The position numbers and the translations under genes were made by a program. From Pristiophorus japonicus (lineage: Eukaryota), in assembly GCF_044704955.1 (NCBI RefSeq), contig NC_091980.1:130510001-130574000 (forward strand): a DNA stretch of 64,000 nt, written 5' to 3'. Positions within the stretch are counted from its first letter, which is position 1; each line of letters opens with the position of its first letter. Shown here one piece after another: positions 1,880 to 64,000 of this stretch. A model generated the notes under the pieces. It searched no databases, was not told the origin of the DNA, and was given only the letters and a program-made list of their open reading frames with translations.

Positions 1880-2001
1880 CTTGAGTGTTTTATCTGAAAA
1901 TTTTAAACCGGTAGCATGGTTGTCACCAGGTGTTAGGTTCTGGTCTACTTGTGTCATTGTCACTCTGGAATCGGAGGTAAGGATTAGGTTAACCATATTC
2001 T

Positions 2002-2154
2002 TTATAGTCGTACCATCTCTATCACTTCATGTCCCTGTCTGGGCTGCTGTCGGTTTTGCGTATGAGCCTGCTGTGCTCGAGCCTGCGCGATGACCCATCT
2101 AAATATTATCCAAACTCCAATCAACACCAATGCTACCATTATTCCTCCAAACAT
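2002..2154 (-). CDS. Putative 50-aa single-pass membrane accessory peptide (MFGGIMVALVLIGVWIIFRWVIAQARAQQAHTQNRQQPRQGHEVIEMVRL)
   Basis: Hand-translated intact small ORF below the ORF-track cutoff. About 20-aa hydrophobic segment then a polar tail, just upstream of env. Confidence 0.35.
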   Translation of the reverse strand: MFGGIMVALVLIGVWIIFRWVIAQARAQQAHTQNRQQPRQGHEVIEMVRL

Positions 2155-4912
2155 CGCTGTCTGCTTTACCGTTGGGTTGGGTTTGTGGACTACACCTACC
2201 CACCGTGGGGTACATTGGCTCTATTGCCATAGGTGATGGTGCTATGGCTGTGCACTGCACTATCCATCTAGTCCTGTTTTTAAAACATCTCTTCCAGCCT
2301 GTTTATCTTAGCTTTTAACTCTTGACCAGCTAGTTCTGTTTTATTTTAATTCTGAATATTCCACCATTTCCTCTGTCAGGTGAGTCTTCTTTATTTTATT
2401 AAGAAATCCAAATTAATAATGTCCAGTATAAAACAGCTGTCAATGGAAAGGGTTAACTGCTTTACAGGTTTGTAAGAAAGCCTGATGTCATTACGTGACT
2501 TCATGTAATCATCCGAAAAAATTTTTTTTTCAAGTCTTTGTGCCTTAAACTTGCTTAGAAATTAGGAATCTGTTAAACAGCATAAATCATTAGTAACGTG
2601 GTCATCATAAAAAATCTTCTCATTGGGAAAGACAGCATTTTAGATTAAACTCCAATTTTTTCTTAACTTCTAATTCAAGTACTTGCCAAATAATTTTTTT
2701 TAAATTGATTTAAGACGAGACCACACATTTTTAATAGCTATTTTGTTTACTGAAATTCATTTTTTTATTTTTTTTATTTCTCTCAGCACAAAATGTAAAC
2801 ATCTGTGCCAGTTCCATTTTCTAAGAATTTAAAATTTCAGTAAGATTCTCTAATTCCCAGTTTTTTTCTTTCTGTGCTGAGTTCGCATAGCTTGGGTCTT
2901 TTCTCCTCGTTCTCTTCAAAACCCTCCTGCTTGTTTAGACTGTTCGGGACTTTTCTTGATAAACACTGTCCATTTTGGAAATCTTTTCAAAGTGCATTGA
3001 AACTTTCTCATAATTTAAAATCTTTATCGATGTAGAGTGTCTTTTACCTCTTCCAGTTTTTTCTTTTTCTAATTAAACCATTATCTTTTTCACAGCAAAC
3101 ATCAACCAGCATTTAGTAAGTTTAGTCTTTTTCCATCACAAACATTTTTTTTTTCAGCACTTATTTAGCACGTTACATCTTTTTTTTTCAGATCTCCTTT
3201 CTTCAAATTTAGGTTTTGTATTCTACACGGAGGGCTCGTGACTCCACAAATTTGTTAATTTAAAATCATTTGTTTACTTTCAAAGTGTCGTCTTTATCTT
3301 TTTCTTTGCTCCATGACTAGAATGGAGTCCAGCAATTAGGTTTCGAGGGCTGCTTTTTGTGATCTCAAAATGCTCCAATTTCAAAGTCGTTAAAATGTCT
3401 CTTCTAAACTGCTAAAGCTTGCTGTTTTCAACATTTTTCAAAAGTCCCTTTTACACCTTCGCAGATAGTTCGCCACTCGCCCAGGAGTTTGACCTGATCC
3501 CTGAAGGTATTTCTATATTGTTTCCAAACCTTTTAATTTTATATCTCATTTTTTCCTTTAAGAGATCAGATTTAATACAATTTTTTTTTTTTTAATCCAC
3601 CTCAGTATTTTGCTGTGCCTTCTCTGAATATCTCAAAATCCTAATGTAAATCTTTATTTAAAACCTTTTTTGAGCTAGAATTTTTTTTTTAAAAGGCATT
3701 CTTTATCTCCTTCCTAGACTAAATTTATGTCTTTCAACCCAATGTAATCAATCATTGCATGTTTTCTTTTGACAAGTAAGTGAGCGTGTCAAATAAATTC
3801 TTTTTTTTAAACCACCGGGACCATGTATTTTTTATCTTTTGCTCAACAAACCTATCCTTTGTACATTTCCTAGCTCTGTAACTTATCATCCAAATAAATC
3901 CACACCTGTGTTTCTAACTTAAAATGTCTTAAAACTTCCCACATACAGGATAACACTACAAAGGGTTTAAAAAAAACTTTCACTCTGTTTAGAAAAGTGG
4001 GTGGAGCTAAAATAAACAGACACTTGCATTCCTCTTCCAACCAGGCTTTTGGAAACATGAAAACATAAAAAAATTCATTCGGCAGTCAAGAAATCACAAG
4101 GACGCAACAACATACATTCACAAGTCTCTCCATTCAACAAGCTTAATTTTTTTTTTTGGCCAGCTCTATTCTTGGATCCATACTTCACTTAAGATTAATA
4201 AAAAAAAAAAAAAAAAACCTGATAGTGATTATTTCTTACATGTTGATTTACTTCCTGTTTGTTTTACGTGGGCTCGCAGTATCAAAACTACAGCCTTTTC
4301 ATTTTTGTCTTTCTTTTCCTTCTCCCACCATTCCGCTGGTCTGCTGGCAGGTCCTGAGGATCCCACCCTACTCGAATCATTTTCTCGATTTTGTTTTTCC
4401 GCCAGGTGGTGGGTAAGGGACCCTTCTGGTCCCCACTCGGTTATTTGTTTTATTGGCCATACCTGGGTAGGACTAGAACCATTAGGAATCTACTCTCGGA
4501 GGTCCGCTTTCTACCTAGCGTAACTTGTAGTAGACCGTCTCCTGGCTACTCTCAGGTCACAAGTTCTGCTGTTGCACAAACTTATTCAATTCTTAAAACG
4601 CGTTTAAGCAATTCCCGCAGTGCTCTACGTATCCTTAACGACTACCTACCACCGCTCTGCCCGTTGGTCAGACCCTGTTCACAGGTTTGGATTCCGTTAG
4701 CTGCTGTACACCGCTTGGTTCTACTCCGGGGTATATTTCAAATTACACTAATGGGTCTGGAAGATGTCTTTCAGTATCATGATCCCACGGTCCAAGTGTG
4801 TTCCCGGCACCTACTTAGTTCCTGGCTGCCACGTGGGACTAAAGTCCTCTTAATTCAGGCTCAGGCTAGGTGTTTGAGATATTGGACTGTCTCCTCATGT
4901 TTATCTTCCAGC

Positions 4913-4929
4913 ATCCACCTTCCGCACCA
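4913..4929 (-). promoter_or_regulatory. Primer-binding site TGGTGCGGAAGGTGGAT (tRNA identity uncertain, loosely Leu-like)
   Basis: TGG (complement of tRNA CCA) lies directly after the LTR end; partial resemblance to the tRNA-Leu PBS TGGTGTCAGAAGTGGGAT. Confidence 0.55.
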
Positions 4930-5560
4930 GTTATAAAATTTTGTTTAAGGTATACACACCCGGTTTCTCCAAGAGCGCCACTGTTAGCGTGAATGTGTTC
5001 TCCCAAGAATCACAACACTGAGTCGGTTCCAACGCCAATGTGGCCTTTATTTTGCATGTTGGGAGGAAGCCTCACGACTGGATCCAGGCATTTCTCTCCG
5101 ACGAATAAAGAAACTCATCGATATTTATATGTTTTACAATAGTGCTTTACAGTTAGCCCACTTTGGCTGGTCACAATCCAATCATAACGATTATAGATTA
5201 CATATAGGTTTCTTTAACCCAATAGAATTCCCCATATACCTCAGGGGCTGTATGTTTGGTTTTGTCAGCTCGGGCTGATTAATGACCTCGTTATGTGAGG
5301 CAGGATCTCTCCTTATCTCTGTTCCTCGTGGCTCGGCTGTGTGAAGTCACTGATTATACCAGTGTACTATAATGGTTTGTTATAATTATCTTGTTTCCAA
5401 GGCATTCCTGGTAGTGGGCCTCACTAGGTCATTGCTCGGTCAGCCCCAGTTCATTACTTGACTAATTGAGTACCCATCATGCCTGGGCAGCCATTTTATG
5501 TGTGGCCACTTTAACCATATGAGTTTGGATATATTCAGCAGGTCCCTAATGCCTACAACA
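4930..5560 (-). repeat. 5' LTR (~630 bp) of the ERV-like element
   Basis: Minus strand starts TGTTGTA and ends TATAAC (imperfect terminal inverted repeat). TATAAA near 5124-5129 precedes AATAAA at 5046-5051, the expected U3-R-U5 order. The PBS follows immediately. Confidence 0.75.
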
Positions 5561-7509: not shown

Positions 7510-13467
<5,958 letters not shown>

Positions 13468-14039
13468 TCAGTACTCGTGTTTATACAATGTGTGTGATAC
13501 TCTGTCCTACATAGAATGGTGGCTTTGTACAGGCTGAGACCTGGGCTCTTGATGTGAAATGTAATCAACTGTAAATAAAATGTTCAATATTGAGCTGGGT
13601 TTTATCTCTTTGCAAGTTACTGGTTGCTTATTTTCCATTTACCATAACTTGCAGCACAAGTATTGCACTCGGTTATGCAACAATCATACATTGGCCTCCT
13701 GTGCTGTAACCACTCAGCCTGTTGAGCCTCTGCTGGCTCTCCAAGAGCACTTCAGCTCGTCCTACTCCCTTGCATTTTCCCTGTAGCCCTGCAATGTTTT
13801 TCCTTCATGGACTTGTTCAATCCTATGATTGAAACTGACTTCACCACCCCCTCGGGCAGTGCAATCCAGATATTATCCACTCACTGCATAAATTTTTATC
13901 CTCATGTCAGCTGTAGTTCTTCTGCCAATTGACTTAAATTTGTGTCTGCTGGTTCTCGTCCCTGCTGCCAGTGCAAACAGTCCTATAATTTTTCACTTTG
14001 CTGGAATAATTTCAATATATTGACATTTATATTCACAAA

Positions 14040-16548: not shown

Positions 16549-16695
16549 CACAGTACTGAGGGAGTGCCGCACTGTCAGAGGGGCAGGACTGAGGGAGTGC
16601 AGCACTGTTAGAGGGGCAGTACTCACAGGATTCTTCACTGTCGGAGGAGCAGCACTCAGGGATTGCCACACTGTCTGAAGGGCAGTACTGAGGGA
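16549..16695. repeat. 33-bp minisatellite (CAGTACTGAGGGAGTGCCGCACTGTCAGAGGGG); longer copy at ~43421-43665, third copy at ~63166-63310
   Basis: Direct tandem repeats are visible; copy number differs between units. Confidence 0.85.
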
Positions 16696-16924
16696 TTGTT
16701 GTACAGACTCATGTTTGATTCAAGTGGGTCAACTGTGCTCATTGGTGGCATCTCCCCCGAAAGGGTAGTGTCTGTGGTGTGATTGGTGGCTCCGGATCTG
16801 AATCACTGCCGCACTCTCTGCCTCATCGAAAGCAGAGTTTTAATCCAAGGGAACACCTCTCATCAGCTCATCCAGGACTGAAACACTTCTGCACTGAAAT
16901 CAGACGTCACGGCTTTGGATCTCC

Positions 16925-18234: not shown

Positions 18235-18345
18235 GTTAATTGGTGCCTCAATTCAGTGAAGATTCCTGATTGGCTCTGAGGGATTGTCAATCATCATTGG
18301 TGATGTCATACCCTGTTTGAATGCAGCTGTTCCAATAGTATAAAT
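18235..18345 (+). promoter_or_regulatory. Ferritin B1 promoter: clustered inverted CCAAT boxes + TATA
   Basis: ATTGG at 18239, 18269 (CTGATTGGCT) and 18296; TATAAA at 18339, 76 nt before the ATG. Confidence 0.7.
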
Positions 18346-18994
18346 ACAGTAGCTTGTGCAAGATAGAGTGAGTTCTTGAACTGTGTAGGTGATAGTGAAA
18401 TATAGATAGAGAAGATGGCCTCCCAAGTGCGTCAGAACTACCACAAGGACTGTGAGGCTGCTGTCAACAAGCAGATCAACATGGAGTTCTGTTCCTCCTA
18501 TGTTTGAGTTGTGTATTCTTTGTTGCTGCATTCTGAAAAGTTGTTAATTCTCCAGTTCAATGAATTGGCTTTAAGTTGTATTTCTCTTGACTTCCTTCCC
18601 TGGGGGAGCAGAGTCTTTGGGCAGTGAGAACTTCAACTGTGTAATACAGGGGATCTTGTTGAGTTCATGGACTGCTCCCTACAGCAGCTGCCCTCTATTG
18701 AGGTTTAATATCGGAAATCAGCGCAGCTGCTGCCTGAGTGTGACAGAAGAGCACAAACCTGGTCAGGGGCCTGTTGACCTGAGACAATGTTCAGTTTCAG
18801 TGGGGGACTGCAGTGAGTGAAATGTGGGTAGGTTCTCATTAGTGCTCTCATTAATTGGAGGTGATGTACTGAGAATCCTGCTGTTGGAGCCCTGCTCACT
18901 GCTGAGATCTCTTGCACTATTGTTGTGTAAACTACTAGAGTGGAGGATTTTTCTCACTCCATGTCCAAACTTTGATTTAGAATGGAAGAAGAAT

Positions 18995-19210
18995 CATTTC
19001 TATAATGCCTTTCACTACCTTGGAATATCCCAAATGCTTTGTAGCCAATGAAGGAGTTAAGTGTAGTTACCTGTTATGTGGGAAATGCAGCAGCCAATTA
19101 GTGCACAGGATGCTCCCACAAACTGAAATGAGATAATGATCAGATCATCTGTTTTAGTGGTGTTGGTTGAGGGATAAATATTAGCCAGGGCACTGCAGAG
19201 AGCTCCTTGC
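18995..19210 (-). mobile_element. SINE 3' fragment (DeuSINE/SacSINE-like) in B intron 1, followed by a minus-strand CR1 fragment to ~19600; paralog ~45980-46585
   Basis: Recognised from memory of the TATA..GCCTTTCAC..CCCAAA.GCTTT..AGCCAATGAAG..GCAGCCAAT..GAGGGATAAATATT motif. Confidence 0.55.
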
Positions 19211-20662
19211 AGTAGTATCTAGAACATGGAGAAGGCTTGAGGGACCAATGGCTGACTCCTGTCATTCACTAAGATCATTGCTAATCTTGTACCTCAACTC
19301 CACCTCCTGCACTGTCCCCATATCCTTTGCTATCCAAAAATCTATTGCTCTTGAATATACTCAATGACTGGAATTCTCTAACCCAGGAGCTGTGGAGGCT
19401 CAAAGAGTCATCACTGAGTGAAGACATTTCTCCTCATCTCAGTCCTCAATGACCCCTGGTTCTAGTCTCTCTCCAGCAAGGGGAACCATCCTCCCTGCAT
19501 CCAATCCTTCAAGTCCTGTAAGAATTTTGTACATTCCTAATGACATCACCTCTCATCCTTTGAACCTTGAATAGAGGCTCAGTCTGCTCAATCTCTCCTC
19601 CTTGATCTTTCACATCCACCTCATGACTGACACACTCTTGTGTGAATGGCAGAAAGTAGAGGAGTTATTGCTTATCCAGGAGTAGAATTTAGTTTGACTG
19701 GACATGAAATGTAATCCTGAACTTTAGTTTTATATGTTCAACCAGCAAAGGAAAAACTTTCATCATGCTATGGGGAGGTGAGGCTCAACTCCAATTGATG
19801 AAGTCAATGGCATTTTGCTAGTTTACAAATGGTGTCTATCTTTTTAAGAATTCATTCATTCTGGGGAAAAATAACTCTTGCATTGTATATGAAGATCAAG
19901 GTCTAAATAGGCTGTCTTAATTTCTCTCTGCAGTCCTTCTACTTTGACCGGGATGATGTTGCCCTGTGTCACTTTGCTGAGTTCTTCAAGGAGCAGTCAC
20001 ATGAGGAACGTGAGCATGCTGAGAAACTGATGCAATTCCAGAATCGCCGTGGAGGACGGATCATCTTGTCTGACATCAAGGTTTGGTTCAATTATTTAGT
20101 GGCCTTCTGTCTGGATACCCTTAGACCTGATTGTTTCAAATACCTCCTAAAGCAATTGATTCTGTGGTAGTGGAATTCAGTAATTCTATATTCCTGTGAC
20201 ACATTGTTTATGGTAAAATGGACTTCTGGTTGCTTTTTTATCCTATTTTTCTTTGTACTGTCTTTTGTATTTTGTTTGTTCCATTGTAAGTGAACTACCT
20301 GTGATTTTCCTCTTCAGAAACCAGAGCAGGATGAGTGGAGCAATGGTCTGGATGCAATGCAGAGAGCTATGCAGATGGAGAAGAATGTGAACCAGAGTCT
20401 GCTGGATCTGCACACAATCTCCACTGGGAGCACTGACCCTCATGTAAGTTCCTCATGTGGGTTTCTGGGCAACTTGGAGGTGGTGGAACATTGCTATCCT
20501 TGAGCTGTTTCAAAAGTGCTCCATGTCCAATAGCTTTGTTTTTAGGGGGGGGTGGTCTCTCTTGGGTTCTTCAGGGGGTGGGGGAGAGGACCATGAAGTT
20601 GGCCAACTATGGACATTGAGACATAAATGGGTCCCAATGTTTCCAGGATCTGAGCTCTCATT

Positions 20663-21959
20663 TGTAGGGGAGGATGAAAACCCCCTCATTTTACCCAGAA
20701 GGAAAAGGGCTGTGGGATCAGTCTGTGCTGTGAATTGAAACCGATGGAAGGAAAACTTTGGGACACAAATGGAGACCCCCCCAGTGTTTGGACTCAAAGG
20801 AAAGTGAATTTAATTTGGAACGATCTACCAAAAAGTTTGAAATCCTCAAGTGCACATGGAAGAAACTATGAACTTTAATCGAATTTGGGATTTTTTAAAA
20901 GGTCTGCAAGAAAAGGGATGTAGTCAATATCAAAAGGGCCAGTTTGGACATTGGAACTAATCAAATTGTCTGGGAACTGTATACCCTCGAAACTTGCCCC
21001 TTGAAAACATTAGCATTTAAACAATGCCACATACATATTCCAACACCTTTTTCATCAGGCATAGAAATATCTGGCTCAGGCCAGATTAGCACAATGGCTG
21101 CAGGAGGCGAATGCAATCAACACCCACTCAAACCTTGAGTAGGTTAAGATCAGTGGGGGAAAAAAAACCTAAAAACCTCAAACTGCTGCATTTTTCAAAA
21201 TCAAAAGTCCACCAATGAGAAGAATCGACTTCAGCAGGAGAGGCGGACTGGATAATCTGGCTATCAACAAGGGGTTTCTGACGTAGTGAAAAAAGAAATG
21301 ATGATTTTCCCTGCCCTCATGATTCAACAACCACAACCACAAGCCTCTCGACACTGAAGGAAAACCAGTGTCCGAAGATAGAAGAAACAAACCACCAGAC
21401 TGCGGAAGGCACAGTAGTGAGTATAACCTCCGGTCCCCAGAACTCCCAACTCAGTTAGGCCAGGAAAGGTGGGAGGTTGGGCATTGTACTGCTAAACTGG
21501 TGTAAAGATTTTTGTTGGGTCTGTTTTTGTGGGATTTAGGGGGATTGTTTTGTTGGTTTGCTGTTTGTTGAATTACACCTTGTCAAATAAATTGGAAGCC
21601 TAAAGTTCCTCTTGGAATCACCTTGTCTCAGTTCTATTGTATTACATCTCCTGATCGTGAGTCTTATGTCAGAACTGTGTAAGGGAAGCTAGGAGTGCCT
21701 TGAAAACGCTCAACTGTGTGTCACAGGCTAGGGAAGAAGGTGTTAGGAGTGTTTGACACTCACAGGTGCCTCACAGGCTAGGCAAAAGCTGTGGGGACGC
21801 ACGAGTCTCAAAACCCCCTTCATAAGCTGTGGATACAGTCTCTCCAGGGGTGCTCTTGCAGCACTCAGGGTACCTCACAGGTCAGGCATAAGCTGTGAGG
21901 GCAGAAGCCCAGAGAGAGACACCCAAGGCACAACAACAACCCTGTGAAAACCCCTTGCA
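20663..21959 (+). mobile_element. 1.3-kb solo LTR in B1 intron 3
   Basis: Termini TGTAGGGG...CCCCTTGCA; 4-bp TSD CATT (20659-20662 and 21960-21963); internal AATAAA near 21586; absent from B2 intron 3 (~47657). Confidence 0.85.
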
Positions 21960-22081
21960 CATTGCACAGTAGCAACTGGATCATTAGAGCAAATGTACAT
22001 CAATTTCAAATGCCCTACCTGATCCTTCTCCACTCCTAGAGAATTAAAATCCTAACTTGGGGGGGATGCACTGATCCTTGA

Positions 22082-22276
<195 letters not shown>

Positions 22277-23989
22277 TAAACTGACTGGGATCAAGCTTAT
22301 TGTGTTTAGTACTTGTATTTATATAATCAGGCCCCTATACTGTAGGGAATGAATGCTTGTGACTTTGTACAAAAAGAGCTGAAACCCATAACAGTAAATA
22401 AACTGTTCAACATTGGGCTGTGTTTTGTCACCTTGTAAATTTGAGTGGTTACTTATTTTTCATTTAACATAACTTGGTTTCTATCAAACAAGAATTACAC
22501 TGACCTGTGCAACATTTATATGGGATTCAGTCTTATGAAATATGTTTTCCCCCTTGTGTAATGTCTATGTATTGACTGGGCCATTCAGGCACCTGTTATA
22601 AGATCTAAAATGTTCAATGGTGTGTTTGGACAACTGACAGTCCCAGGGGATATTGGCCCAGTTACCAAAAGTCTGGTCAGAGGTATGTATTGAGAAGGTA
22701 CAGAGATGTTTAGGAAGGCATGTCTAGAGCTTGGGACTGATAAGCTGTATACAATTACCTGTTCCAACGATCTGGTTTTTACAAAGGAGAATTCAATCCA
22801 ACAAGATGTAACATCTGCTAAATTCAGGACCAATTTGCCAGTAATTCATTGCTGCACCATTTCAGTCGAATGAAGAAGTCCTGCATTAGCTTCCTATTTA
22901 GTCTATCTGCCTCGTGAACGAACAGCAGTTTGTATTCAATCGCTGCAACAGATCCTCTTCAGTTATGCAGGTCGTTCAGTAATGGGATTCACCACTGCTG
23001 CTATCGGCTTGCTGTTAAGCTTTGTAGGCAGAAAAGCAATATCTCAGCACACTGAACCCTGGGCACTACAATTGGGTGAGGAGGGAAAGCAACAGCTGGC
23101 ATCAACTTGCTGTCATAGCTTCAGTGCTTCGTGTGGATACCCTAGTCGTTCTGGGACAGCTTCTCTTCCGTCTGCTCCCCTAATGGTTGAATAACTTGCC
23201 AACACAACCTCCATTCAAACATGAATAAGGTATTGCAAGACTAACGATACTCCAACAACATTTAATACTTGGGGAAGGTGTAAATGTATTTAATTCCACA
23301 AAGCAAAAGGCACAAAATGTTAAACCCATTTCTGGCCACAATGCCTAAGCACTCAATTTATAAGCCTATCAATTTTTTTTTTGTTAATAATGAAATTCAC
23401 AGTGGTACTAACACCCTGGATTAGATCTCCATTTCTCTCCTTCATGGCTATGAATGGATACAAATGGTACTGCTGCTCCAATAATCCAGTGTTTCCGAGT
23501 TATTTTTAGGAATTTAACTGAGAACTGTGTTGAGTGCAATTAAATAGCCATGCACAGACATTCCAGGTTAATGTCTTGGCAACACTCAAGTGCCTTTCGG
23601 CTATTGATGTTACAAACTGTCATATATTGATGAGCCACAGTTCCACGAGTCGGCCTGGGTTTGCGTGCTGATGGGTTTGATGGCTTCATGTATCAACAAA
23701 TCTCTTGCTCACTCGATGTGAAACTTTACAGGTGCTCGTGTTTTAAGAATTACTTACAATTTGCAGCTCAGGAAAAAGACCATTTGGGCCAACTGGGCCA
23801 TGCTGTGGTTTATGCTCTATGTGAAACTTGTCCCACCCCACTTCATCTAGACCTATTAGCATATCCTTCTATTCCTTTCCCCTTTGTGTTGATCAAGCTT
23901 TCCCTTAAATGCATCTATGCTCTTTGCATTCAGAGTTATTACTGCGGGTAGCTCAGTAAACGCACCGCTGCTGCTGTGGATTTTCTGTT

Positions 23990-27290: not shown

Positions 27291-27570
27291 CTGATCGGCT
27301 TGCTTGGCCATTTCAGAGGGCAGTTAAGACTCAACCACATTGCTTTGGGTTTGGAATCATATCGGCCAGATTTCCTTCCTGAAGGACATTAGTGAAGCAG
27401 ATTGGTTTTTATGACAATCCGATAGCTCCCTGGGCAACATTACTGATACTAGCCTTTTATTCCTGATTTTAATTTAATTAACTGAATTTCAATTCCCCAG
27501 CTGCCATGGTGGGACTTTGGATTATTAGTCCAGGCCTCTGAATTACTTGTCCAGTAACTTAACCACGATG
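27290..27570 (-). mobile_element. SINE-like / LINE 5' region repeat; paralog ~52030-52310
   Basis: Minus-strand motifs CACTAATGTCCTTCAGGAAGG and AATGTGGTTGAGTCTTAACTGCCCTCTGAAATGGCC, recalled as common shark interspersed repeats. Confidence 0.5.
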
Positions 27571-29078: not shown

Positions 29079-29717
29079 AACCTATGCCCTCTCCAGACCA
29101 GTGCAAGACCACCCAAACCTCTGTCGTTGAACTGCACTATGCGGACGACGCCTGCGTCTGCGCACATTCTGAGGCTGAACTCCAGGATTTAGTCGATGCC
29201 GTCACTGAGGCATATGAAATCATGGGCCTTGCACTTAACATCCATAAGGGAAAGTGCCTCCATCAGCCTGTCTTCGCCGCACAGCACGGCCCCCCAGACA
29301 TCAAGATTCACGGCGTGGCTCTCGACAATGTGGACCACTTCCTATACCGTGGGAGCCTCTTGTCAACAAAGGCAGACATCGATGCGGAGATTCAATATCG
29401 CCTCCAGTGCGCCAGTGCAGCCTTCAGCTGCCTGAGGAAAGGAGTGTTCGAAGACCAGGCCCTCAAACCTACCACCAAGCTCACGCTATACAGGACTGCA
29501 GTAATACCCACCCGACTGTATGGATCAGAGGCATGGATGACTTACAGAAGGCACATCTCGTCGCTGGAGATATATCACCAAAGATGCCTCCTTAAGATGC
29601 TGTAAATTCCCTGGGAGGACAGATGCACCGACATCAGTGTCCTCGCGCAGGCTAACATCCCCAGCATTGAAGCACTAACCACATGTGATCAGCTTTGCTG
29701 GGCAGGCCACTTGGTCC

Positions 29718-29869
29718 TTACTGCTAGGGGGATCAAGGGGTATGGCGAGAAAGCAGGAATGGGGTACTGAAGTTGAATGTTCAGCCATGAACTCATTGAA
29801 TGGCGGTGCAGGCTAGAAGGGCCGAATGGCCTACTCCTGCACCTATTTTCTATGTTTCTATGTTTCTAT
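29718..29869 (+). mobile_element. Young 152-bp CR1 3' end nested in the RTE, unit 1 only
   Basis: GTCC flanks both sides; (TTTCTATG)n tail; absent at ~54027. Confidence 0.88.
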
Positions 29870-30334
29870 GTCCACATGCCAGACATGAGACTCTCGAAGC
29901 AACTGCTCTATGCGGAACTCCTTTATGGCAAACGAGCCAAAGTTAAGCAGCGGAAACGTTACAAGGACACCCTCAAAACCTCTCTGATGAAGTGCGACAG
30001 CACCACTGATGCCTGGGAGACTCTGGCCGAAGTCCATCCTAGTTGGAAAAAGTGTATCCGGGAGAGCGTTGAGCTCTTCGAATCTCAACGCTGCAAGCGT
30101 GAAGAGGTCAGGCAGCGGAAGGAAGGTGTGGTAAATCAGTGCCACCCACCCCCTTCCCCCGACGAATATCTGTCCCATCTGTGACAGGGTCTGTGGCTTT
30201 CATGTTGGACTGTTCAGCCACCAACGAACTCACTTTAGGAGAGAAAGCAAGTCTTCCTCGATGCTGAGTGACTGCCTATGATGATGGGTTCAGCTGCAGG
30301 TATTCCTCGCTCTGAGCTCAGAACTGCGCCAATG

Positions 30335-30570
30335 GTTAACACTCATCTGTGCCTTTTTATCTCTAGAATTGACTATTTCAATGCTCTCCTGCTGGCCTTA
30401 CATGCTCCATAAACTTAAGCTTATCCAAAACTCTGCTGCCCGTATCCTAACACACACCGAGTCCCACTCACCCATAACCCCTGTGCTTGTGGACCATCAT
30501 TGGCTCCCGGTCTGACAGCGCCTCAAATTCAAGATTCTTATCCTTGTATTAAATCCCACCAGAGCCCTTC
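30335..30570 (+). mobile_element. L2-like LINE fragment; paralog ~54495-54730
   Basis: SRIDYFNALL..L..LKLIQNSAARILT..HWLPV..RL.FKIL motif. Confidence 0.7.
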
Positions 30571-30587
30571 CCTCACCTCTTTTCCCA

Positions 30588-30732
30588 GCACATTGATAAT
30601 ATCGGTGCTGTTTCCTGTTTTCACAATAAACTGGAACAATTAATTCACTATGTTCCCAATTTCCACCCTTCACTCACCTTCACATGGTCCATTTCTGTCA
30701 CTTCACTTCCCTTTCTCGACTTCTCTGTCTAT
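30588..30732 (+). mobile_element. Penelope-like RT fragment; paralog ~54745-54890
   Basis: HIDNI...NFHPSLTFTWSIS.TSLPFLDFSV, matching Penelope YIDD..LPFLD motifs. Confidence 0.65.
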
Positions 30733-31284
30733 CGCCTCAGTCTATCAGACAAATATCCAATGAGCTGTTTGGATGTTGCTTCAAACCCGCAGATACCTGC
30801 AAATGACCAACCTACTGAACAATCCAGAACTCTTAAAAAGACACTGAATCGCAAACAACAGAGGATTCAATGAATCTTTCAAGGTGGCCATTAACTGGTC
30901 CAGGCAGAGCACGGTCGATAGGGTGTTCTCTCTGTCTGCCTGCCTTTGTTCCGCAGCTATATCCGTGCCCGGGTATCCCTGGATTGGGAGCACGCGGTGT
31001 CTGCCGGTATGCTTGAGGCTTTCCGTCACCGGAGGGCACCAGAGGGAGGGGAGCGCAGCGTGGATACAGGGAAATAGTGTAAATTTTTAAAGTTTTTATG
31101 TTAGTTTTGTCATAATGTGGATCTGACAGTTTATTCCCCCTTATAAAGGGAGCACTTATGGTTTAAGTGTTTCCGATAGCTGAATTAAAATGCCCAAAGA
31201 ATAGAGAATCCAATTAAACCTGTGACTCTGGATATTTAAACTGTGTTTGAGGAAAGTTCGGACAATTGAGATCCTCATTGAGAT

Positions 31285-31452
31285 GTCAGCCAATGATGCT
31301 CATTCTTCGAAGATCTGATTGGCTCTGGGAGTCCATCTCCCTCCTCCCTTTACTTGATTGGTGCTCTGAGAAGATGCAACTTCTGATTGGGTATTGATGA
31401 CTGTCACTCATCATCAAGAGTGCCACACCCTGGATTATCCCTCAGTATAAAT
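31285..31452 (+). promoter_or_regulatory. Ferritin A2 promoter: four CCAAT/Y-boxes + TATA
   Basis: AGCCAAT at 31288, CTGATTGGCT at 31315, TTGATTGGT at 31354, CTGATTGGG at 31383; TATAAA at 31446, 83 nt before the ATG. Confidence 0.7.
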
Positions 31453-31528
31453 ATTGGAGTTTGATATTAGTGAAATGTTATCTTTGTACTTCTAAAAAGT
31501 TTTTACTTTGGAAAAATAAAATATTAAG

Positions 31529-40304
<8,776 letters not shown>

Positions 40305-43300
40305 TGCTTCTGATCAGTACTCTTGTTTATACAATATGTGTGAGACTCTGTCCTACATAGAATGATGGCTTTGTACAGGCTGAGACCTGGGCTCTTGATG
40401 TGAAATGTAATCAACTATAAATAAACTGTTCAATATTGGACTGGGTTTTGTCTCCTTGCAATTAGTGGTTGCTTATTTTCCATTTACTGTAACTTATTTG
40501 CAGCACAAGTATTGCACTAGGCTATGCAATAATCATACATTGGCCTCCTGTGCTGTAACCACTCAGCTGGCTCTCCAAGAGCACTTCAGCTCGTCCTACT
40601 CCCTTGCATTTTCCCTGTTGCCCTGCAATGTTTTTCCTTCATGTACTTGTTAAATCCTATGATTGAAAATGTCTTCACCACCCTCTCGGACAGTGCAATC
40701 CAGATATTAACCACTCATTGCATAAAAGTTTATCCTCATGTCAGCTGTGGTTCTTCTGCCAATTGTCTTAAATTTGTGTCTGCTGGTTCTCGTCCCTTCT
40801 ACCAGTGTTAATAGTCCTATCATTTTGCTCGTTGCTGGGGTAATTTCAATATATTGACAGTTATATTCATAAAAACATAAGAGCAGTCGTTGTCCATTTT
40901 GGTTCTGTAAAGACTGCACCACCATTAAATATGATCATAACTAATCCTTTACCACCACCATGTTCATGCTTTTACCCCATAGCCCTTGATGCCTTTTGTA
41001 TCAAGATATCTCATATCCTTAAATATATTCAGCAATTGGGCTCCACTGCCTTCTGTAGTCAATAGTTCCCCAGTTTCCCCATCCTGAGTGAAAACATATT
41101 TATTATCTTTGCGCTAAATTTCCTACAGCATATTCTGAGCCTGTGCCTTTTTATTCTCAACTTCCCAGCAAAGGGCTACTTCCTCCCCACATCCAATCTC
41201 TCCAAACCAGTCTGAATTTTATGATTTAATAAGATCCCCTTTCACTCTTCTGGTGAATACAGGCCTGGTCACGCTATTCTCTTGTCAAACAACAATCTTT
41301 CCATCCAAGGAATCAGTCTGGTGGAACTTCGCTGCGCTCTTAAGGAGATCCAAAACTGTACACAATACACCAGGTGTAGTTTCACCAAAGCCATGTATAA
41401 TTGTAGTAAGACATTCTTGCTCCTGTACTGTGGAAAAATTGTGAATATTAAATTTGGTTTCCTCCTCCAAATCTATTTAGAAATGTGATTAGTTGAGGCC
41501 CAAGCACCGATCCCTGTGGTATCCCACTAGTCACGACTCACCACCCAGGAAAAGACCTGTTTATTCCGACTGTGTTTTCTATCAATTAACCAATTTTCAA
41601 TCCATAGTATATTACCCCCAATCCCATGTGCTTTAATTTTGCACACTAACCGCTTGTGGGACTTTATCAAAGGCCTTCTGAAAATCCAAATACACGACAT
41701 CCACCGGTTCTCCCTTATCTAATCTCAGTTACAGTCTCGAAAAAAAACTCCAGTAGGTTTGTCAAACACAATTTTCTTTTCATAAATCCATATTGACTTT
41801 GTCTAATCTCGTTGATAGTTTCTAAGTGTCCCTTTATCACATTCTACTAATGTTAGGCTAACCGGGCTGCAGTTACCTGTTTTCTTTCTCCTTCCTTTTT
41901 AAAATTGTGGGGTTACATTTGCCACCCTCCATTCTGCGGCAACTGTTCCATAATCTGTAGAAATTTGGACGATGATAACCAATGCAACCACTATTTCCAT
42001 GGCTACCACTTTTATTCCTCTGGGATGCAGATTATCAGGCCCTGGGGATTTATCAGCTTTCAGTCCCATTAGTTTCTCCAGCACTATTTTCTGACTAATA
42101 ATCATTACCTTTAATTTCTCTTGCTCACGAGATCCTTAGTTCCCTAGCATTTCTGTGATGTTATTTGTGTCCTCTTCTGTAAAGACAGAACCAAAGTATT
42201 TAATTGTTCTGCCATTTCCTTGTTCCCCATTATAAATTATCCCATTTGTGACTGAAAAGGACCTACATTTGTCTTCACTAATCTTTTTCTTTTTACAGAC
42301 TGGGAGAAACTTTTACAGTCGGTTTTTATGATCCTTGCAAGTTTAGTCTCACACTATTTTCCTCCTCTTAAACAATCTCTTGGTCCTTTTTTGCTGAATA
42401 CTAAATTGCTCCCAATCCTCAGGATTGCTACTTGTTCTGGCAACTTTGTATGACTCCTCTTTGGATCTAATACTATCCTTATATTCTTGTGTAAACCATG
42501 GTTGGGCCACTTTTCCTTTTGTGTTTTTGCAGCAGAAAGGAATGTATAATTGTTGCAATTCATGCATTCGTTACTTAAATGTTAGCCATTGACTATCCAC
42601 CATCATGCCTTTTAATGACTCTTCCCAATCTATCATAGCCATTCCTCATACATTCATAGTTTCCTCTGTTTAGATTTAGGACCTAGTTTTGGATTGGACA
42701 AATTCACTTTCAATCTTCATAAAGAATTCAATTATGTTATGATCATTCTTCCCTAAAGGACCCCGCACAAAAAGACTATTAATTAACCCCTTCTCATTGT
42801 ACAATACCCAATCTACGATAGGTATTCAGACATGTTGAAGATCTAATTTCAATTGTACGTATATGTAACGACTCAAAAATCTGGTTCCTGTAAACTCACT
42901 CAGGTGCAACATCATCCATCTTTATTCCAGCCCAAGAGTGCCAGTGTGACAAAGACACCCAGCTTAAATACAGATGATCAAGCACACATGCCACGTGTGT
43001 CCAGCCCGATGATCTCCGACCGCGGCGCCCTCTGGTGTCTTGTGACTCCCAAGCATTAAGACATAAGAGTATATCTTGCAAATTCTATTCATGCATTTCA
43101 ATCTAGCGTTGCAACGCTGTAATACAACAAGTGAAAATGTTCACGTTTGTTCAGCCACATAAGGCAGTGAGACCACAGGTACATTTTAGTGTCTTAAAGG
43201 AGGCAGAGAGGTTTACATAATAACATGCTATGCAATTTGGCACCTCGAGCCTGTTCCGCCATTCAGTAAAATCATGACTGGTCTGATCTTGGTCTCAATA

Positions 43301-45202
43301 CTTTCCTGCCTGTTCCCCATTACCCTTGACTCCGCTATTGTTCAAAAATCTATCTATCTCCACCTTAAATGTATTCAATGACCCTGCCTCCACACACGCG
43401 CACACACACACAGACACACACAGTACTGAGTGAATGCCGCACTGTCAGAGGGGCAGTACTGAGGGAGTGCCGCACTGTCAGAGTGGCAGCACTGAGGGAG
43501 TGCCGCACTGTCAGAAGGGCAGGACTGAGGGAGCGCCGCACTGTCAGAGGGGCAGGACTGAGGGAGCGCCGCACTGTCAGAGGGACAATACTCACAGGAT
43601 TCTTCACTGTCGGAGGAGCAGCACTAAGGGATTGCCACACTGTCTGAAGGGCAGTACTGAGGGATTGTTGTACAGACTCATGTTTGATTCAGGTTGGTCA
43701 ACTGTGCTCATTGGTGGCATCTCCCCCGAAAGGGTAGTGCCTGTGGTGTGATTGGTGGCTCTGGATCTGAATCACTGCCGCACTCTCTGCCCCATCTAAA
43801 GCAGAGTTTTAATCCAAGGGAACACCTCTCATCAGCTCATCCAGGACTGAACCACTTCTGCACTGAAATCAGACGTCACGGCTTTGGATCTCTGGGATAC
43901 ACCAGCACGAAGGTCAATGACCAGAGGGGAGAGATGAGGACGATTATTTTAACGCAGCGAGTTGTTGTGATCCGGAACGCGTTGCCTGAAAGGGCGGTGG
44001 AATCAGATTCAACAGTAACTTTGAAGAGGGAATTGCATATACACTTGACAAAAGTTGCAGGGCTATGGGGAAGGAGCTGAGGAGTGGGACGAATTGGATC
44101 GCCCTTCCAAAGTGCCTGCACAGGCACGATGGGCCGAATGGCCTCTTTCTGTGCTGATAGAATCTATGATGAGCCAGACAGTTAGAGCATATCTGAGCCT
44201 CATCATTTCAATCTGATTTAAATATTCATCATTTCAATCAGATTTAAATATTCTTTCGAGTCACTGAAAACCGACTGTAAAAGGACACGTCTAACACATC
44301 AAATTGAGGGGCAGGAAAAGACCAGCTGGTCCATCAAGCCTGCCCCAAAACATACCGGAGCAAATCATAGAATCATAAAATGGGTACAGCACAGAGGGAG
44401 GCCATTCGGCCTGTCGAGCCCGTGCCGGCTCTCTTCGAGAGCACTTCAGCTAGTCCCACTCCCCCGCCCTTCCCCTGCAACCCTGCTATTAATTTTTCCT
44501 TCAGGTACTTATCCAATTCCCTTTTGAAAGCCACGATTGAGTCTACCTCCACCACCCTCTCGGGCATTGCATTCCAGATCCCAACCATTCGCTGTGGAAA
44601 CATGTTGACTTTGGTTCTTTTGCCAGTCACTTTAAATCTGTGTCCTCTGGTTCTCGACCCTTCTGCCAATGGGAACAGTTCCTGTCTATCAATTCTGTCC
44701 AGACACCTCATGATTTTGAATCCCTCTATCAAATGGAGATGTGGGTGACAATGTGTTCAGTAATGTTCACTCCCTCTCATTCTCACTCAATATATTGAAT
44801 TTTACCAGGCATCATTCCATGAGAATAAAAATGAAAGATTGTTGATGCCCCCATGTAGCCAATCCTCAGACACATGCCCATTCTCTGTATTCGAACTGGG
44901 GGCAGTTCACACCACCCACAGGATGGAATTCCCATTCCACTGGCCAATGCTTGGTTTGTAAATGCACCAAGACGATTTGATTGCTTTGAATATTGTCTCA
45001 GTGCCACAGAAACTTGCAAGTAACAAACTTCGCCAGATTATGAAAAACCCCTTTGGCGAAAGTAGAAAATTATAATTTCATTCAAGTGAGAGCGTTAAAC
45101 AACGGCACACTTTTAGATTTGAAGACGTTCAAGGAACCCAAAGGCAGTGACATCACCAAGACTGATCTCCCCCAGACCCCTCCTACAAATCCCCTCTCCT
45201 TT

Positions 45203-45313
45203 GTTAATTGGTGCCTCAATTCAGGGAAGATTCCTGATTGGCTCTGAGGGATTGTCAATCATCATTGGTGATGTCATACCCTGTTTGAATGCAGCTGTTC
45301 CAATAGTATAAAT
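45203..45313 (+). promoter_or_regulatory. Ferritin B2 promoter: CCAAT boxes + TATA
   Basis: Paralog of 18235-18345; TATAAA at 45307. Confidence 0.7.
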
Positions 45314-45382
45314 ACAGGAGCTTGTACAAGACAGTATGAGTTTCAGAACTGTGCAGAGGATAGTGAAATATAGATAGTGAAG

Positions 45383-47979
<2,597 letters not shown>

Positions 47980-50900
47980 ACTGACTGAGATCAAGCTTTG
48001 TGTTTAGTACTTGCATTTATATAATCAGGCCCATATACTGTCGGGAATGAAGGCTTGTGACTTTGTGCAAAAAGAGCTGAAACCCACAACAGTAAATAAA
48101 CTGTTCAACATTGGGCTGTGTTTTGTCACCTTGTAAATTTGAGTGGTTACTTATTTTTCATTTAACTTAACTTGATTTCCATCAAACAAGAATTACACTG
48201 ACCTGTGCAACATTTATATGGGATTCAGTCCTATGAAATGTGTTTTCCCCTTGTGTAATGTCTCTGTATTGACTGGGCCATTCAGACACCTGTTATAAGA
48301 TCTAAAATGTTCAATGGTGTGTTTGGACAACTGACAGTCCCATGGGATATTGGCCCAGTGACCAAAAGTCTGGTCAGAGGTATGTATTGAGAAGGTACAG
48401 AGATGTTTAGGAAGGCATGTCTAGAGCTTGGGACTGATAAGCTGTATCCAATGATCTGCCTTTGTACAAATGACAATTCAATCCAACAAGATGTAACATC
48501 TGCTAAACTCAGGACCAATTTGCCAGTAATTCATTGTTGCACCATTTCAGTCCAATGAAGAAAAAGTCCTGGATTAGCTTCCTAGTTAGTCTATCTGCCT
48601 CGTGAATGAACAGCAGTTTGTATTCAATAGCTGCAACAGATCCTCTTCAGTTATGCAGGTCGTTCAGTAATGGGACTCATCACTGATGCTTTAGGCTTGC
48701 TGTTAAACTTTGTAGGCAGAAAAGCAATATCTCAGCACACTGAACTCTGGGCACTACAATTGGGTGAGGAGGGAAAGCAACAGCTGGCATTAGCTTGCTG
48801 TCATAGCTTCAGTGCTTCGTGTGGATACCCTAGTCGTTCTTGGACAGCTTCTCTTCCGTCTGCTCCCCTAATGGTTGAATAACTTGCCAACACAACCTCC
48901 ATTCAAACATGAATAAGGTATTGCAAGACTAACGATACTCCAACGACATTTAATACTTGGGGAAGGTGTAAATGTATTTAATTCCACAAAGCAAAAGGAA
49001 CAAGATGTTAAACCGATTTCTGGCCACAATGCCGAAGTACTCAATTTATAAGCCCATCAATTTTTTTTTTTTTTTGTTCGTACCACTGTGAATTTCATTA
49101 CTATCACCCTGGATTCGATCTCCATTTCTCTCCTCCGTGGCTATGAATGGATACAAATGGTATTGCTGCAGCTCCAATAATCCAGTATTTACTAGTTATT
49201 TTTAGTAATTTAACTGTGTTGAGTGCAATTAAATAGCCATGTACAGACATTCCAGGTTAATGTCTTGGCAACACTCAAGCGCCTTTTGGCTATCGATGTT
49301 ACAAAATGTCATATATTGATGAGCCACAGTTCCACGAGTCGGCCTGGGTTTGCGTGCTGATGGGTTTGATAGCTTCATGTATCAACAAATCTCCAGCTCA
49401 CTCGATGTGAAACTTTACAGGTGCTTGTGTTTTAAGAATTACTTACAATTTACAGCACAGGAAAAAGACCATTTGGGCCAACTGGACCATGCTGTGGTTT
49501 ATGTTCCATGTGAAACTTGTCCCACCCCACTTCATCTAGACCTATTAGCATATCCTTCTATTCCTTTCTCCTTGTGTTTATGTAGCTTTCCCTTAAATGC
49601 ATCTATGCTCTTTGCATTCAGAGTTATTACTGCGGGTAGCTCAGTAAACGCACCGCTGCTGCTGTGGATTTTCTGTTCAGCTGTGTGGGTAAAGAAGTGA
49701 GTAACAGCTATAAAGATCCGCAATGTTTGAGCTCGAGGACAGCATTTATTGTCCGTCACTGATTGCCTTTGAGAAGGTGCTGGTCAGCCATCTTCTGGAA
49801 CCGCTGCAGTCTTGTGGTGAAGGTACTCCAACAGTGCTTTTCGGGAGGGAGTTCCTGGATTTTGCCGCAGTGACGAAAAAGGAATGGTGATATATTTCCA
49901 AGTCAGGTTGGTGTGTAACATGGAGGTGAACTTGCAGGTGATAGTATTCCCAAACTTCTGCTGCCCTTGTCCTGCTAATTGCTAGAGCTCGTGGGATGGC
50001 TTGTGCTGCTGAAAAAGCCTTGGCGAGTTGCTGCAGTGCATCTTGTCGATGGTATACACTGCAGCCATGGTGCACCGGTGGAGGAAGCAGTGAATGTAGA
50101 AGGTGGTGGATGGGGTGCCAATCAAGCTGCCTGCTTTGTCCTGGATGGTGTCGAGCTTCTTGATGATTGCTGAAGCTGCACTCAGCCAGTCAAGTGGAGA
50201 GTATTCCACCACACTCCTGACTTGTGCCTTGTCGATGCTGGAAAGACGTTAGGTGTCAGGAGGTGAGACACTCACCGCAAAATACCCAGCCTCTGGCCTG
50301 TTCTTATTACCAGACTTTTTATGCGGCTGGGCGAGTTCAGTTTCTGATCAGCGATGACCCCCAAGGGTTAATGCTGGGGAATTCAGCGGCAGTGAATGTT
50401 AAGGGCAGGTGGTTAGACTCTCGCTTTTTGCAGATAGCCATTGCCTGGCACTTGTGTGGTGCCATTGTTACTTGCCCATTATCAGCCCCACACTGAATGT
50501 CATCCAGGTCTTGCTGCATGTGGGCATGGACTGCTTCATTTTCTGATGTCTTGCAAATGGAACAGAACACTGTGTAATCATCAGCAAACATTCCCACTTC
50601 TGGCCTTTATGATGGAGGGAAGTTCATTGATGAAGCAGCTTAAGATAGTTGGGCCAAGGACACTGTCCTGAGGTATTCCTGCAGAGATGTCCTGGGGCTG
50701 AGATGATTGACCTCCAACAACCACTTCCTTAGTGCTAGATATGAGTCCAGCTCATCGAGAGTTTTCGATATTCACATCGACTTCAATATTGCAAGGGTTA
50801 CTTGATGCCGCACTCCATCAGCTGCTGCCTTGCTGTGAAAGGTAGTCACTCTCTCCTCACCTGTAATTCAGCTCCTTTGTACATGTTTGGACCAAGGCTG

Positions 50901-55427: not shown

Positions 55428-55595
55428 GTCAGCCAATGATGCTCATTCTTCAAAGATCTGATTGGCTCTGGGAGTCCATCTCCCTCCTCCCTTTACTTGA
55501 TTGGTGCTCTGAGAAGATACAACTTCTGATTGGGTATTGATGACTGTCACTCATCATCAAGAGTGCCACACCCTGGATTATCCCTCAGTATAAAT
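55428..55595 (+). promoter_or_regulatory. Ferritin A3 promoter: CCAAT/Y-boxes + TATA
   Basis: Nearly identical to the A2 promoter; TATAAA at 55589. Confidence 0.7.
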
Positions 55596-55671
55596 ATTGG
55601 AGTTTGATATTAGTGAAATGTTATCTTTGTACTTCTAAAAAGTTTTTACTTTGGAAAAATAAAATATTAAG

Positions 55672-59918
<4,247 letters not shown>

Positions 59919-62689: not shown

Positions 62690-64000
62690 TTCCAGTGCCA
62701 GTGTGACAAAGACACCCAGCTTATATACAGGTGATCAAGCACACATGCCACGTGAAAACAGCCCGATGATCTCTGACCGCAGCGCCCTCTGGTGTCTTGT
62801 GACTACCAAGCATTAATCCATAAGAGTATATCTTGCAAATTCTATTCATGCATTTCAATCGAGCATTGCAATGCTGTAATCCAACAATTGAAAATGATCA
62901 CGTTTGTTCAGCCACATAAGGCAGTGGGACCACAGGTACATTTTAGTGTCTTAAAAGAGGCAGAGAGGTTTACATAACATTCGTATGCCATTTGGCACCT
63001 CGAGCCTGTTACGCCAATCAGTAAAATCGTGACTGGTCTGATCTTGGTCTCAACACTTTCCTGCCTGTTCCCCATAACCCTTGACTCCGCTATTGTTAAA
63101 AAATCTATCCATCTCCACCTTAAATGTATTCAATGACCCTGCCTCCACACACGCACACAGACACACAGTACTGAGGGAGTGCCGCACTGTCAGAGGGGCA
63201 GTACTGAGGGAGTGCAGCACTGTTAGAGGGGCAGTACTCACAGGATTTTGCACTGTCGGAGCGGCAGCACTAAGGGATTGCCACATTGTCTGAAGAGCAG
63301 TACTGAGGCATTGTTGCACAGACTCATGTTTGATTCAGGTGGGTCAACTGTGCTCATTGGTGGCATCTCCCCTGAAAGGGTAGTGCCTGTGGTGTGATTG
63401 GTGGCTCCGGATCTGAATCACTGCCGCACTCTCTGCCCCATCTAAAGCAGAGTTTTAATCCAAGGGAACACCTCTCATCAGCTCATCCAGGACTGAACCA
63501 CTTCTGCACTGAAATCAGACGTCACGGCTTTGGATCTCCGAGATACACCAGCATGAAAGGTCAATGACCAGAGGGGAGAGATGAGGACGATTATTTTAAC
63601 GCAGGGAGTCGTTGTGATCCGGAACGCACTGCCTGAAAGGGCGGTGGAATCAGATTCAACAGTAACTTTGAAGAGGGAATTGCAAATATACTTGACAAAA
63701 GTTGCAGGGCTATGGGGAAGGAGCTGAGGAGTGGGACGAATTGGATCGCTCTTTCAAAGTGCCTGCACAGGCACGATGGGCCGAATGGCCTCTTTCTGTG
63801 CTGATAGAATCTATGATGAGCCAGATAGTTAGAGCATATCTGAGCCTCATCATTTCAATCAGATTTAAATATTCATCATTTCAATCAGATTTAAATATTC
63901 TTTCGAGTCACTGAAAACCGACTGTAAAAGGACACGTCTAACACATCAAATTGAGGGGCAGGAAAAGACCAGCTGGTCCATCAAGCCTGCCCCAAAACAT

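Follow-up and report, generated by a model that had tools for sequence, protein, structure and literature searches.

Canonical vertebrate cytosolic ferritin mRNAs carry an iron-responsive element (IRE) within their 5' leader, and this 5' IRE is the textbook means of their control. The locus described here raises the question whether a whole family of ferritin genes in the sawshark Pristiophorus japonicus stands outside that control. An earlier note on this DNA had proposed that an amplified ferritin family was uncoupled from iron-dependent translational control and was made in bulk under a tissue programme, for example in oocytes, in yolk or for secretion. The stretch analysed, called the window below, comprises 64,000 nucleotides of contig NC_091980.1 (positions 130,510,001 to 130,574,000, forward strand), and positions are counted from its first letter.

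The window contains five four-exon ferritin genes, all on the plus strand, in the order A1, B1, A2, B2, A3. They form a tandem (A-B)n array with an A-B unit length of about 24-27 kb, which extends past both ends of the window. Three of the five copies (A2, B2 and A3) have open frames of 176 codons, and two are broken. A1 (7510-13579) is represented by exons 2-4 only, its exon 1 lying outside the window, and has an in-frame stop in exon 2; no fifth exon 1 was found in the window by blastn. B1 (18239-22402) has CCAAT boxes, a TATA box at 18339, an ATG at 18415 and exons 2-4 at 19934, 20318 and 22124, and is broken by a 13-nt deletion that takes the end of exon 1 and the first splice donor. In A2 the coding part of exon 1 (31529-31630) comprises 34 codons, which are spliced to exon 2 letters in contigs of relatives; exon 2 occupies 34410-34556, exon 3 39715-39840, and exon 4 with the 3' UTR 40149-40425, with the TGA at 40302-40304 and an AATAAA at 40420. 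B2 (45207-48100; exons 45383-45484, 46920-47066, 47311-47436 and 47824-47979) has CCAAT boxes, a TATA box at 45307 and the ATG at 45383, and A3 (55433-59918; exons 55672-55773, 58571-58717, 59329-59454 and 59763-59918) has CCAAT boxes, a TATA box at 55589 and the ATG at 55672; both have an open 176-aa frame. The closest proteins were annotated products of the same species, with identities of 98% between A2 and P0007, 99% between A3 and P0010, and 98% between B2 and P0023. Between A and B, 25 of 528 coding nucleotides differ, whereas the non-coding DNA is only about 50-65% alike. Roughly half of the codon differences are non-synonymous (6 synonymous and 5 non-synonymous between A2 and A3, 8 and 9 between A2 and B2), which, taken together with two broken copies out of five, points to relaxed selection on each copy.

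The claim that in the four visible starts (B1, A2, B2 and A3) the TATA box lies 76-83 nt from the ATG proved exact: the distance from TATAAATA to the ATG is 83 nt in A2 and A3 (A type) and 76 nt in B1 and B2 (B type). In A2 the box, which is identical in the two types, is located at 31446-31453 on the plus strand (ATG at 31529). It is preceded by four CCAAT/ATTGG boxes, NF-Y-type sites, within 31290-31390 (at 31290, 31318, 31357 and 31386), two of which align with boxes of the B type, and by a decamer on the minus strand (31401-31410) resembling the DECA motif of TALE (Pbx-Prep) proteins in 9 of the 10 published letters. The spacing between the last box, an inverted CCAAT, and the decamer is exactly 10 nt in all four promoters of both types (31386-31410 in A2, 18269-18293 in B1, 45237-45261 in B2, 55529-55553 in A3). 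A shuffle test of the decamer was circular, the pattern having been written from the same promoters, and the weight lies on its conservation between A and B and on the 9/10 motif match. The motif and its pairing with NF-Y were taken from PMC6023610; according to the accessible part of that paper, maternally supplied TALE and NF-Y bind pairs of DECA and CCAAT elements in zebrafish blastulae, both factors are ubiquitous, and such elements by themselves rarely drive expression. TATAAA occurs 23 times on the plus strand of the window. Four CCAAT boxes within 170 nt upstream were found at 4 of the 23 sites, all of them gene starts, and the remaining 19 sites have 0-2 boxes each; a second TATAAA upstream of A2, at 31142, has one. 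When A and B, whose non-coding DNA separated long ago, were compared against shuffles, the block from -150 to the TATA box was conserved (z 8.5), and neither the leader (z 1.4) nor the DNA farther upstream (z -0.4 to 0.3) was. Judged from CCAAT count and A/B conservation, TATAAATA looks like a real promoter element.

With the cap site placed by the textbook spacing at TATA+30, the predicted 5' leader of A2 extends from 31476 to 31528 (plus strand), is about 53 nt long and shows neither a significant fold nor an IRE. Predicted leaders are 53 nt with 19% G+C in the A type and 46 nt with 35-37% G+C in the B type. The description of the A-type leader as nearly all A/T is thus apt (81% A+T), and only 0.3% of the 53-nt segments of the window are as rich. 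Folding was no better than that of shuffled sequences (z -0.50 for A2, 1.11 and 0.56 for others). A2 and A3 show no difference over the 83 nt from TATA to ATG and lie in a tract of about 1% divergence, so the four starts amount to roughly two independent observations. In A2 a 6-codon upstream ORF (31475-31495, plus strand) opens close to where the cap site is predicted. Short upstream ORFs that start at TATA+29 are present in A2, A3 and B2 (45336-45377 in B2), and B1 has none. They are probably too close to the cap for use; if transcription started farther upstream, they could possibly act as a translational brake. All 15 true splice acceptors of the genes consist of CAG with at least 14 pyrimidines in 20 positions. 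The leaders contain no good acceptor, the best AG being an AAG with 13/20 pyrimidines, in the A type only, 29 nt before the ATG. An upstream exon could be joined only through an acceptor within the leader, so that the weakness of this candidate counts against such an exon.

IREs, which have a CAGWGH loop, a C bulge and two stems, were searched for by sequence pattern, by Rfam and by a custom covariance model; the loop is defined in the available part of bioRxiv 524991. Neither strict nor relaxed patterns found an IRE in the four leaders or in the 1 kb upstream of them. The strict pattern had no match on the whole plus strand of the window, three complete intergenic spacers included, and the relaxed pattern gave one non-canonical match (28545) within 3 kb upstream. 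The earlier note had called for a scan with the Rfam IRE model; run on genomic DNA in E-value mode (E<=10), it found no IRE in 29500-32500, a stretch around A2 equal in size to the controls, or in the whole window. Rfam in gathering mode gave no match in the window either, a result that is uninformative because the same mode missed 20 of 20 control ferritin loci, five of which have a pattern-detected IRE. The controls were 61 metagenome ferritin loci, mostly mRNAs of 50-70% identity and none above 82%, and are not shark FTH1. Of the 27 best-matching among them, 10 had an IRE by the strict pattern, and Rfam in E-value mode reported IRE_I in two of three. As an observation on these metagenome loci (L001-L045), many clear IREs score below the Rfam gathering score for IRE_I, so that default Rfam scans under-report them.

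The custom covariance model was trained on 9 control IREs and tested on 37 loci, the other 15 of the 61 lying outside the model search. It matched 23 of the 37 at 17.5-50.7 bits, three of these being near-copies of training sequences. In the window it produced 19 matches at E<=10, the best reaching 14.0 bits (minus strand) and, on the plus strand, 11.6 bits. No match lay within 2 kb upstream of any start, and the best plus-strand matches have no CAGUG loop. Weak model matches at 27340, 52081, 24696 and 50384 were folded and were not IRE-like. The sequence near TAGTGA in the A promoter was also weighed as what might be left of a degenerate IRE, and discarded: its position is at or ahead of the predicted start, B does not share it, and neither pattern nor model scored it. 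The absence of a CAGUG loop from some 50 nt is normal for random DNA (the loop is present in 127 of 1207 tiles of the window), and the weight of the finding therefore rests on the sequence being the promoter-proximal leader of a ferritin. The leaders lack an IRE in genomic DNA, as confirmed by three methods with working controls; the note's statement that the leader of about 50 nt has no CAGTGN-loop hairpin held for all four starts by pattern, Rfam and custom model alike. IRP1 and IRP2 repress ferritin through the 5' IRE, and in humans mutations of the FTL IRE lead to unregulated overproduction and disease, as stated in the accessible text of PMC11719527. With leaders that have no IRE, IRP1/2 should not block translation, and the family most likely lies outside IRP translational repression, as far as can be judged from its sequences.

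Evidence on transcripts came from relatives. Five sequencing runs, none recorded as RNA, hold 12% of the sampled words, and four of the five were examined. Exon 1 runs on into exon 2 letters in three of the four (X1, X4 and X5). A shallow contig of X2 (on 31528-31630) has exon 1 joined directly to exon 3, exon 2 being skipped. Exon 1 joined to letters of later exons indicates that the family is spliced in relatives. In the X2 contig the ATG is preceded by 87 nt, more than the 46-53 predicted; the 30 visible letters of the 87 contain no IRE loop and have a 7-nt run in common with the B1 leader. By eye, the 9 nt ahead of the ATG in X4 are the same as the last 9 of the genomic B2 leader, and a contig that retains an intron agrees with B-type intron 1 in 26 of 30 letters, which suggests that the B type exists in another species. 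Among the exon-1 contigs listed, depth was 14 to 20,833 in X4 and 404 to 1,604 in X5 (the same organism), and 2.8 and 4.5 in X1 and X2. These depths pool family members and are a poor measure of expression, so they give a weak hint of very high and uneven expression of the family; the contigs cannot give the start site. No contig covered the A2 promoter or leader at 80% likeness, which carries no weight on the start site. Ferritin is mentioned in liver in the available portion of a shark transcriptome study (PMC5568229), and ranks among the top transcripts of shark skin and eye, possibly derived from blood cells, in what is accessible of bioRxiv 364992; in those portions the paralog is unnamed.

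The encoded protein is an animal ferritin (PF00210): exon 2 matched 237 of 177,635 PDB sequences at E<=0.001, and the alignment of human H ferritin with P0007 (98% identical to A2) spans residues 2-176 (E about 1e-89). The ferroxidase ligands E27, Y34, E61, E62, H65, E107 and Q141 (human H numbering) are present in all three open copies (A2, B2 and A3), which are predicted to encode a complete, catalytic ferroxidase centre; the loss of ligands that marks an L subunit was not found. There is no N-terminal extension or signal-like segment, as the 176-aa chain starts level with cytosolic ferritins by eye, and in A2 the reading from an upstream in-frame ATG ends at a stop. The proposal of secretion finds no support in this cytosolic-type chain. 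The acidic segment FFKE is the extra cavity carboxylate mark of M chains. In the window proteins FFKE aligns with the frog M chains 3ka9 and 4mjy, and many non-M rows of the alignment share it. Residue 144 (human H numbering), beside the ferroxidase centre, is Met in exon 4 of all copies (40149-40301 in A2). Of the 31 rows that represent the amplified elasmobranch clade, 30 have Met144; at this position Ala, Ser or Asp is found in most other vertebrate ferritins, and Met in one teleost row. Tyr29, usually conserved, is replaced by Cys (A2, B2) or His (A3), and the same changes were seen in several sawshark database copies.

Two trees were built from 62 and 42 rows picked from match lists, with fused and partial matches mostly left out and no L chains. 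Both contained three chondrichthyan lineages, namely the orthologues of FTH1, a lineage of low copy number and the clade to which the window genes belong, the sister of which is one Callorhinchus protein, P0070 (support 100/96 and 100/97). The FTH1 clade (99/99 and 99/89) holds other chondrichthyan proteins, and the window genes fall outside it. A grouping with frog or fish M chains received no supported placement, the backbone of the trees being poorly supported. Copies group largely by lineage. A clade signature was present in 61 of 77 chondrichthyan cluster representatives versus 2 of 107 other fetched proteins, both from sharks; it was found in 23 of 27 sawshark-named clusters, with 294 member sequences. 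Clusters named Heptranchias, Chiloscyllium and Stegostoma have 180, 127 and 69 members, counts that may include other species, isoforms and duplicates. For the sawshark, at least 23 distinct protein clusters is a safe floor, and a hundred or more copies are possible. No relative was found among viral contigs. By these comparisons the window genes constitute a third chondrichthyan clade, amplified across sharks, which is neither FTH1 nor a signal-peptide ferritin. The proposed uncoupling from IRP control is supported, as the most likely reading, for an amplified family with a TATA-proximal, IRE-less leader. The comparison with canonical H and L ferritins has to be qualified: these genes are not orthologues of FTH1, and according to the trees FTH1 and a further ferritin of low copy number are retained in cartilaginous fishes.

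The array also carries traces of recombination and insertion. In a tract of about 1.25 kb (31120-32370), the promoter, exon 1 and the first part of intron 1 of A2 are only about 1% diverged from A3. The edge near 32370 is sharp and is followed by 6-16% divergence, the units elsewhere being mostly 2-16% diverged; recent gene conversion is the likely origin of the tract. Intron 2 of A2 contains a decayed LTR retroelement on the minus strand (35074-39600) with reverse transcriptase, RNase H and an integrase zinc domain. It is also present at the same intron-2 site of A1 (8173-12766), has LTRs of about 240 nt and has no counterpart in A3. As the element is common to A1 and A2, yet downstream of it A2 is nearer to A3 than to A1, the units appear to be mosaic. 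Judged from lineage-wise grouping, broken copies and codon differences, the family is one of birth-and-death evolution with conversion and relaxed selection per copy. Other repeats were noted in passing. An insertion of about 1.3 kb (20663-21957) lies in intron 3 of B1 and is missing from B2. A 33-nt minisatellite is found upstream of each B gene (16551-16698, 43421-43664 and 63166-63308, with 4.5, 7.4 and 4.3 copies), the third preceding a B3 gene past the window end. Positions 1-5560, unique to A1 intron 1, contain broken frames on the minus strand, some of them rich in cysteine and one including a hydrophobic stretch, which give the impression of a decayed virus-like envelope gene; none of four frames tested matched Pfam, and one frame tried had no atlas match.

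The family resembles known ferritins in part. The promoter of human FTH1 has a TATA box with an upstream inverted CCAAT, as in the window genes. The window proteins are about 74-76% identical to FTH1, with complete ferroxidase ligands and four exons, but the genes differ from it in the missing IRE, the leader of about 50 nt, the many copies and a clade apart from shark and mammal FTH1. With the M subunit of frogs and ray-finned fish they share the length of 176 aa, the ferroxidase centre and the FFKE segment; in contrast, they have Met144 where frog M has Asp, and do not group with frog or fish M with support. In the hadal snailfish, tandem expansion of fthl27 gave 14 copies versus 3, and overexpression lowers ROS, according to the available part of PMC10746142. 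That family is likewise a tandemly amplified, highly expressed fish ferritin, but it belongs to a single teleost lineage, whereas the shark family is found in several lineages and seems to be larger. FTMT is described in the accessible parts of PMC4118045 and PMC7760355 as a vertebrate ferritin with no functional IRE that is not iron-controlled, and the second of these also describes mouse FTHL17 as a six-gene germ-cell family. FTMT is IRE-less like the shark genes, but is intronless and has a targeting peptide, whereas the shark genes have three introns and no extension; FTHL17, unlike them, has no ferroxidase activity. An IRE-less ferritin (FTMT) and a fish ferritin array (fthl27) were thus already known separately, and what appears to be new is that introns, a predicted intact ferroxidase centre, the lack of an IRE and amplification across lineages of sharks occur together. 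No work on shark ferritin expansion or its leader was found in the open-access literature. Piccinelli and Samuelsson reportedly treated the evolution of the IRE in 2007, and IRE-less fish ferritins may already appear there.

Three other explanations have to be weighed against escape from IRP control with a function of its own. The array could for the most part have arisen incidentally, through unequal crossing-over and gene conversion in DNA rich in repeats; one or a few copies would then matter, the IRE-less leader would be inherited from a founder and copy number would have no special function. The two broken copies of five, the nearly equal numbers of non-synonymous and synonymous codon differences, the retroelement insertions, the mosaic identities and the grouping of copies by lineage all fit such a history; yet the multi-copy clusters in several shark lineages, a coding sequence far more alike between A and B than the non-coding DNA, the conserved promoter and the deep transcripts of one run speak against it, and on balance we consider it unlikely. 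Somewhat less probable still is a ferritin of the oocyte or yolk, or a secreted one, produced in bulk to supply the embryo; as a special case it overlaps with the reading we prefer. The DECA and CCAAT pairs bound by maternal factors in zebrafish (PMC6023610) would suit it, as would database names reading 'oocyte isoform-like', which are apparently automatic labels. A chain with no signal-like segment, the ubiquity of TALE and NF-Y together with the rarity with which their elements alone drive expression (in the same partly available source), and the report of shark ferritin in liver, skin and eye (the accessible parts of PMC5568229 and bioRxiv 364992, paralog unnamed) argue against it, and the synthesis in oocytes or yolk proposed earlier found no support here.

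The least probable of the three, in our opinion, is a hidden IRE or its equivalent, either beyond the scanned region, through an upstream start or a non-coding exon, or in the form of a non-canonical hairpin bound by IRP. The 87-nt leader on one X2 contig, the AAG at -29 in the A type and the second TATAAA at 31142 could be cited for it. Against them stand the absence of a strict IRE from the plus strand with its three complete spacers, the plus-strand model matches of 11.6 bits at best with no CAGUG loop, leaders that fold no better than shuffles, the single CCAAT box at the upstream TATAAA, and the lack of conservation between A and B more than 150 nt above the TATA box.

The explanation that we regard as probable is an IRP-independent cytosolic ferritin whose output is set by transcription and gene dose and which serves as a pre-made iron sink, FTH1 keeping the iron sensing. 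The compact promoter, with CCAAT boxes, the TALE-type decamer and the TATA box, would start a leader of about 50 nt with no IRE; the mRNAs would then be translated at any iron level, and output would follow transcription and copy number. As the open copies represent cytosolic 176-aa chains with a full ferroxidase centre, an iron-oxidising sink is likely, and the job of the family may be to provide a large pre-made one, for storage, as an antioxidant or for iron withholding, in particular cell types. A separate FTH1 gene, on which we assume an IRE in sharks, would keep iron-sensed control. A more far-reaching version is offered only tentatively: that in several lineages of sharks and their kin an array of tens to more than 100 ferroxidase-active genes escaped IRP control. 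It would form, next to FTH1, a second system of iron buffering driven by dosage, possibly the largest vertebrate ferritin family, and would act as a pre-loaded sink in eggs or in cells of the blood or immune system, IRE loss and amplification having been selected together. A vertebrate ferritin family with introns and an intact catalytic centre that has no IRE and has been amplified many times would show that, in one vertebrate lineage, transcription and gene dose govern some of the iron storage. It would offer a natural setting in which to ask what purpose IRE control serves, and a lead into iron handling, oxidative defence and iron withholding in sharks.
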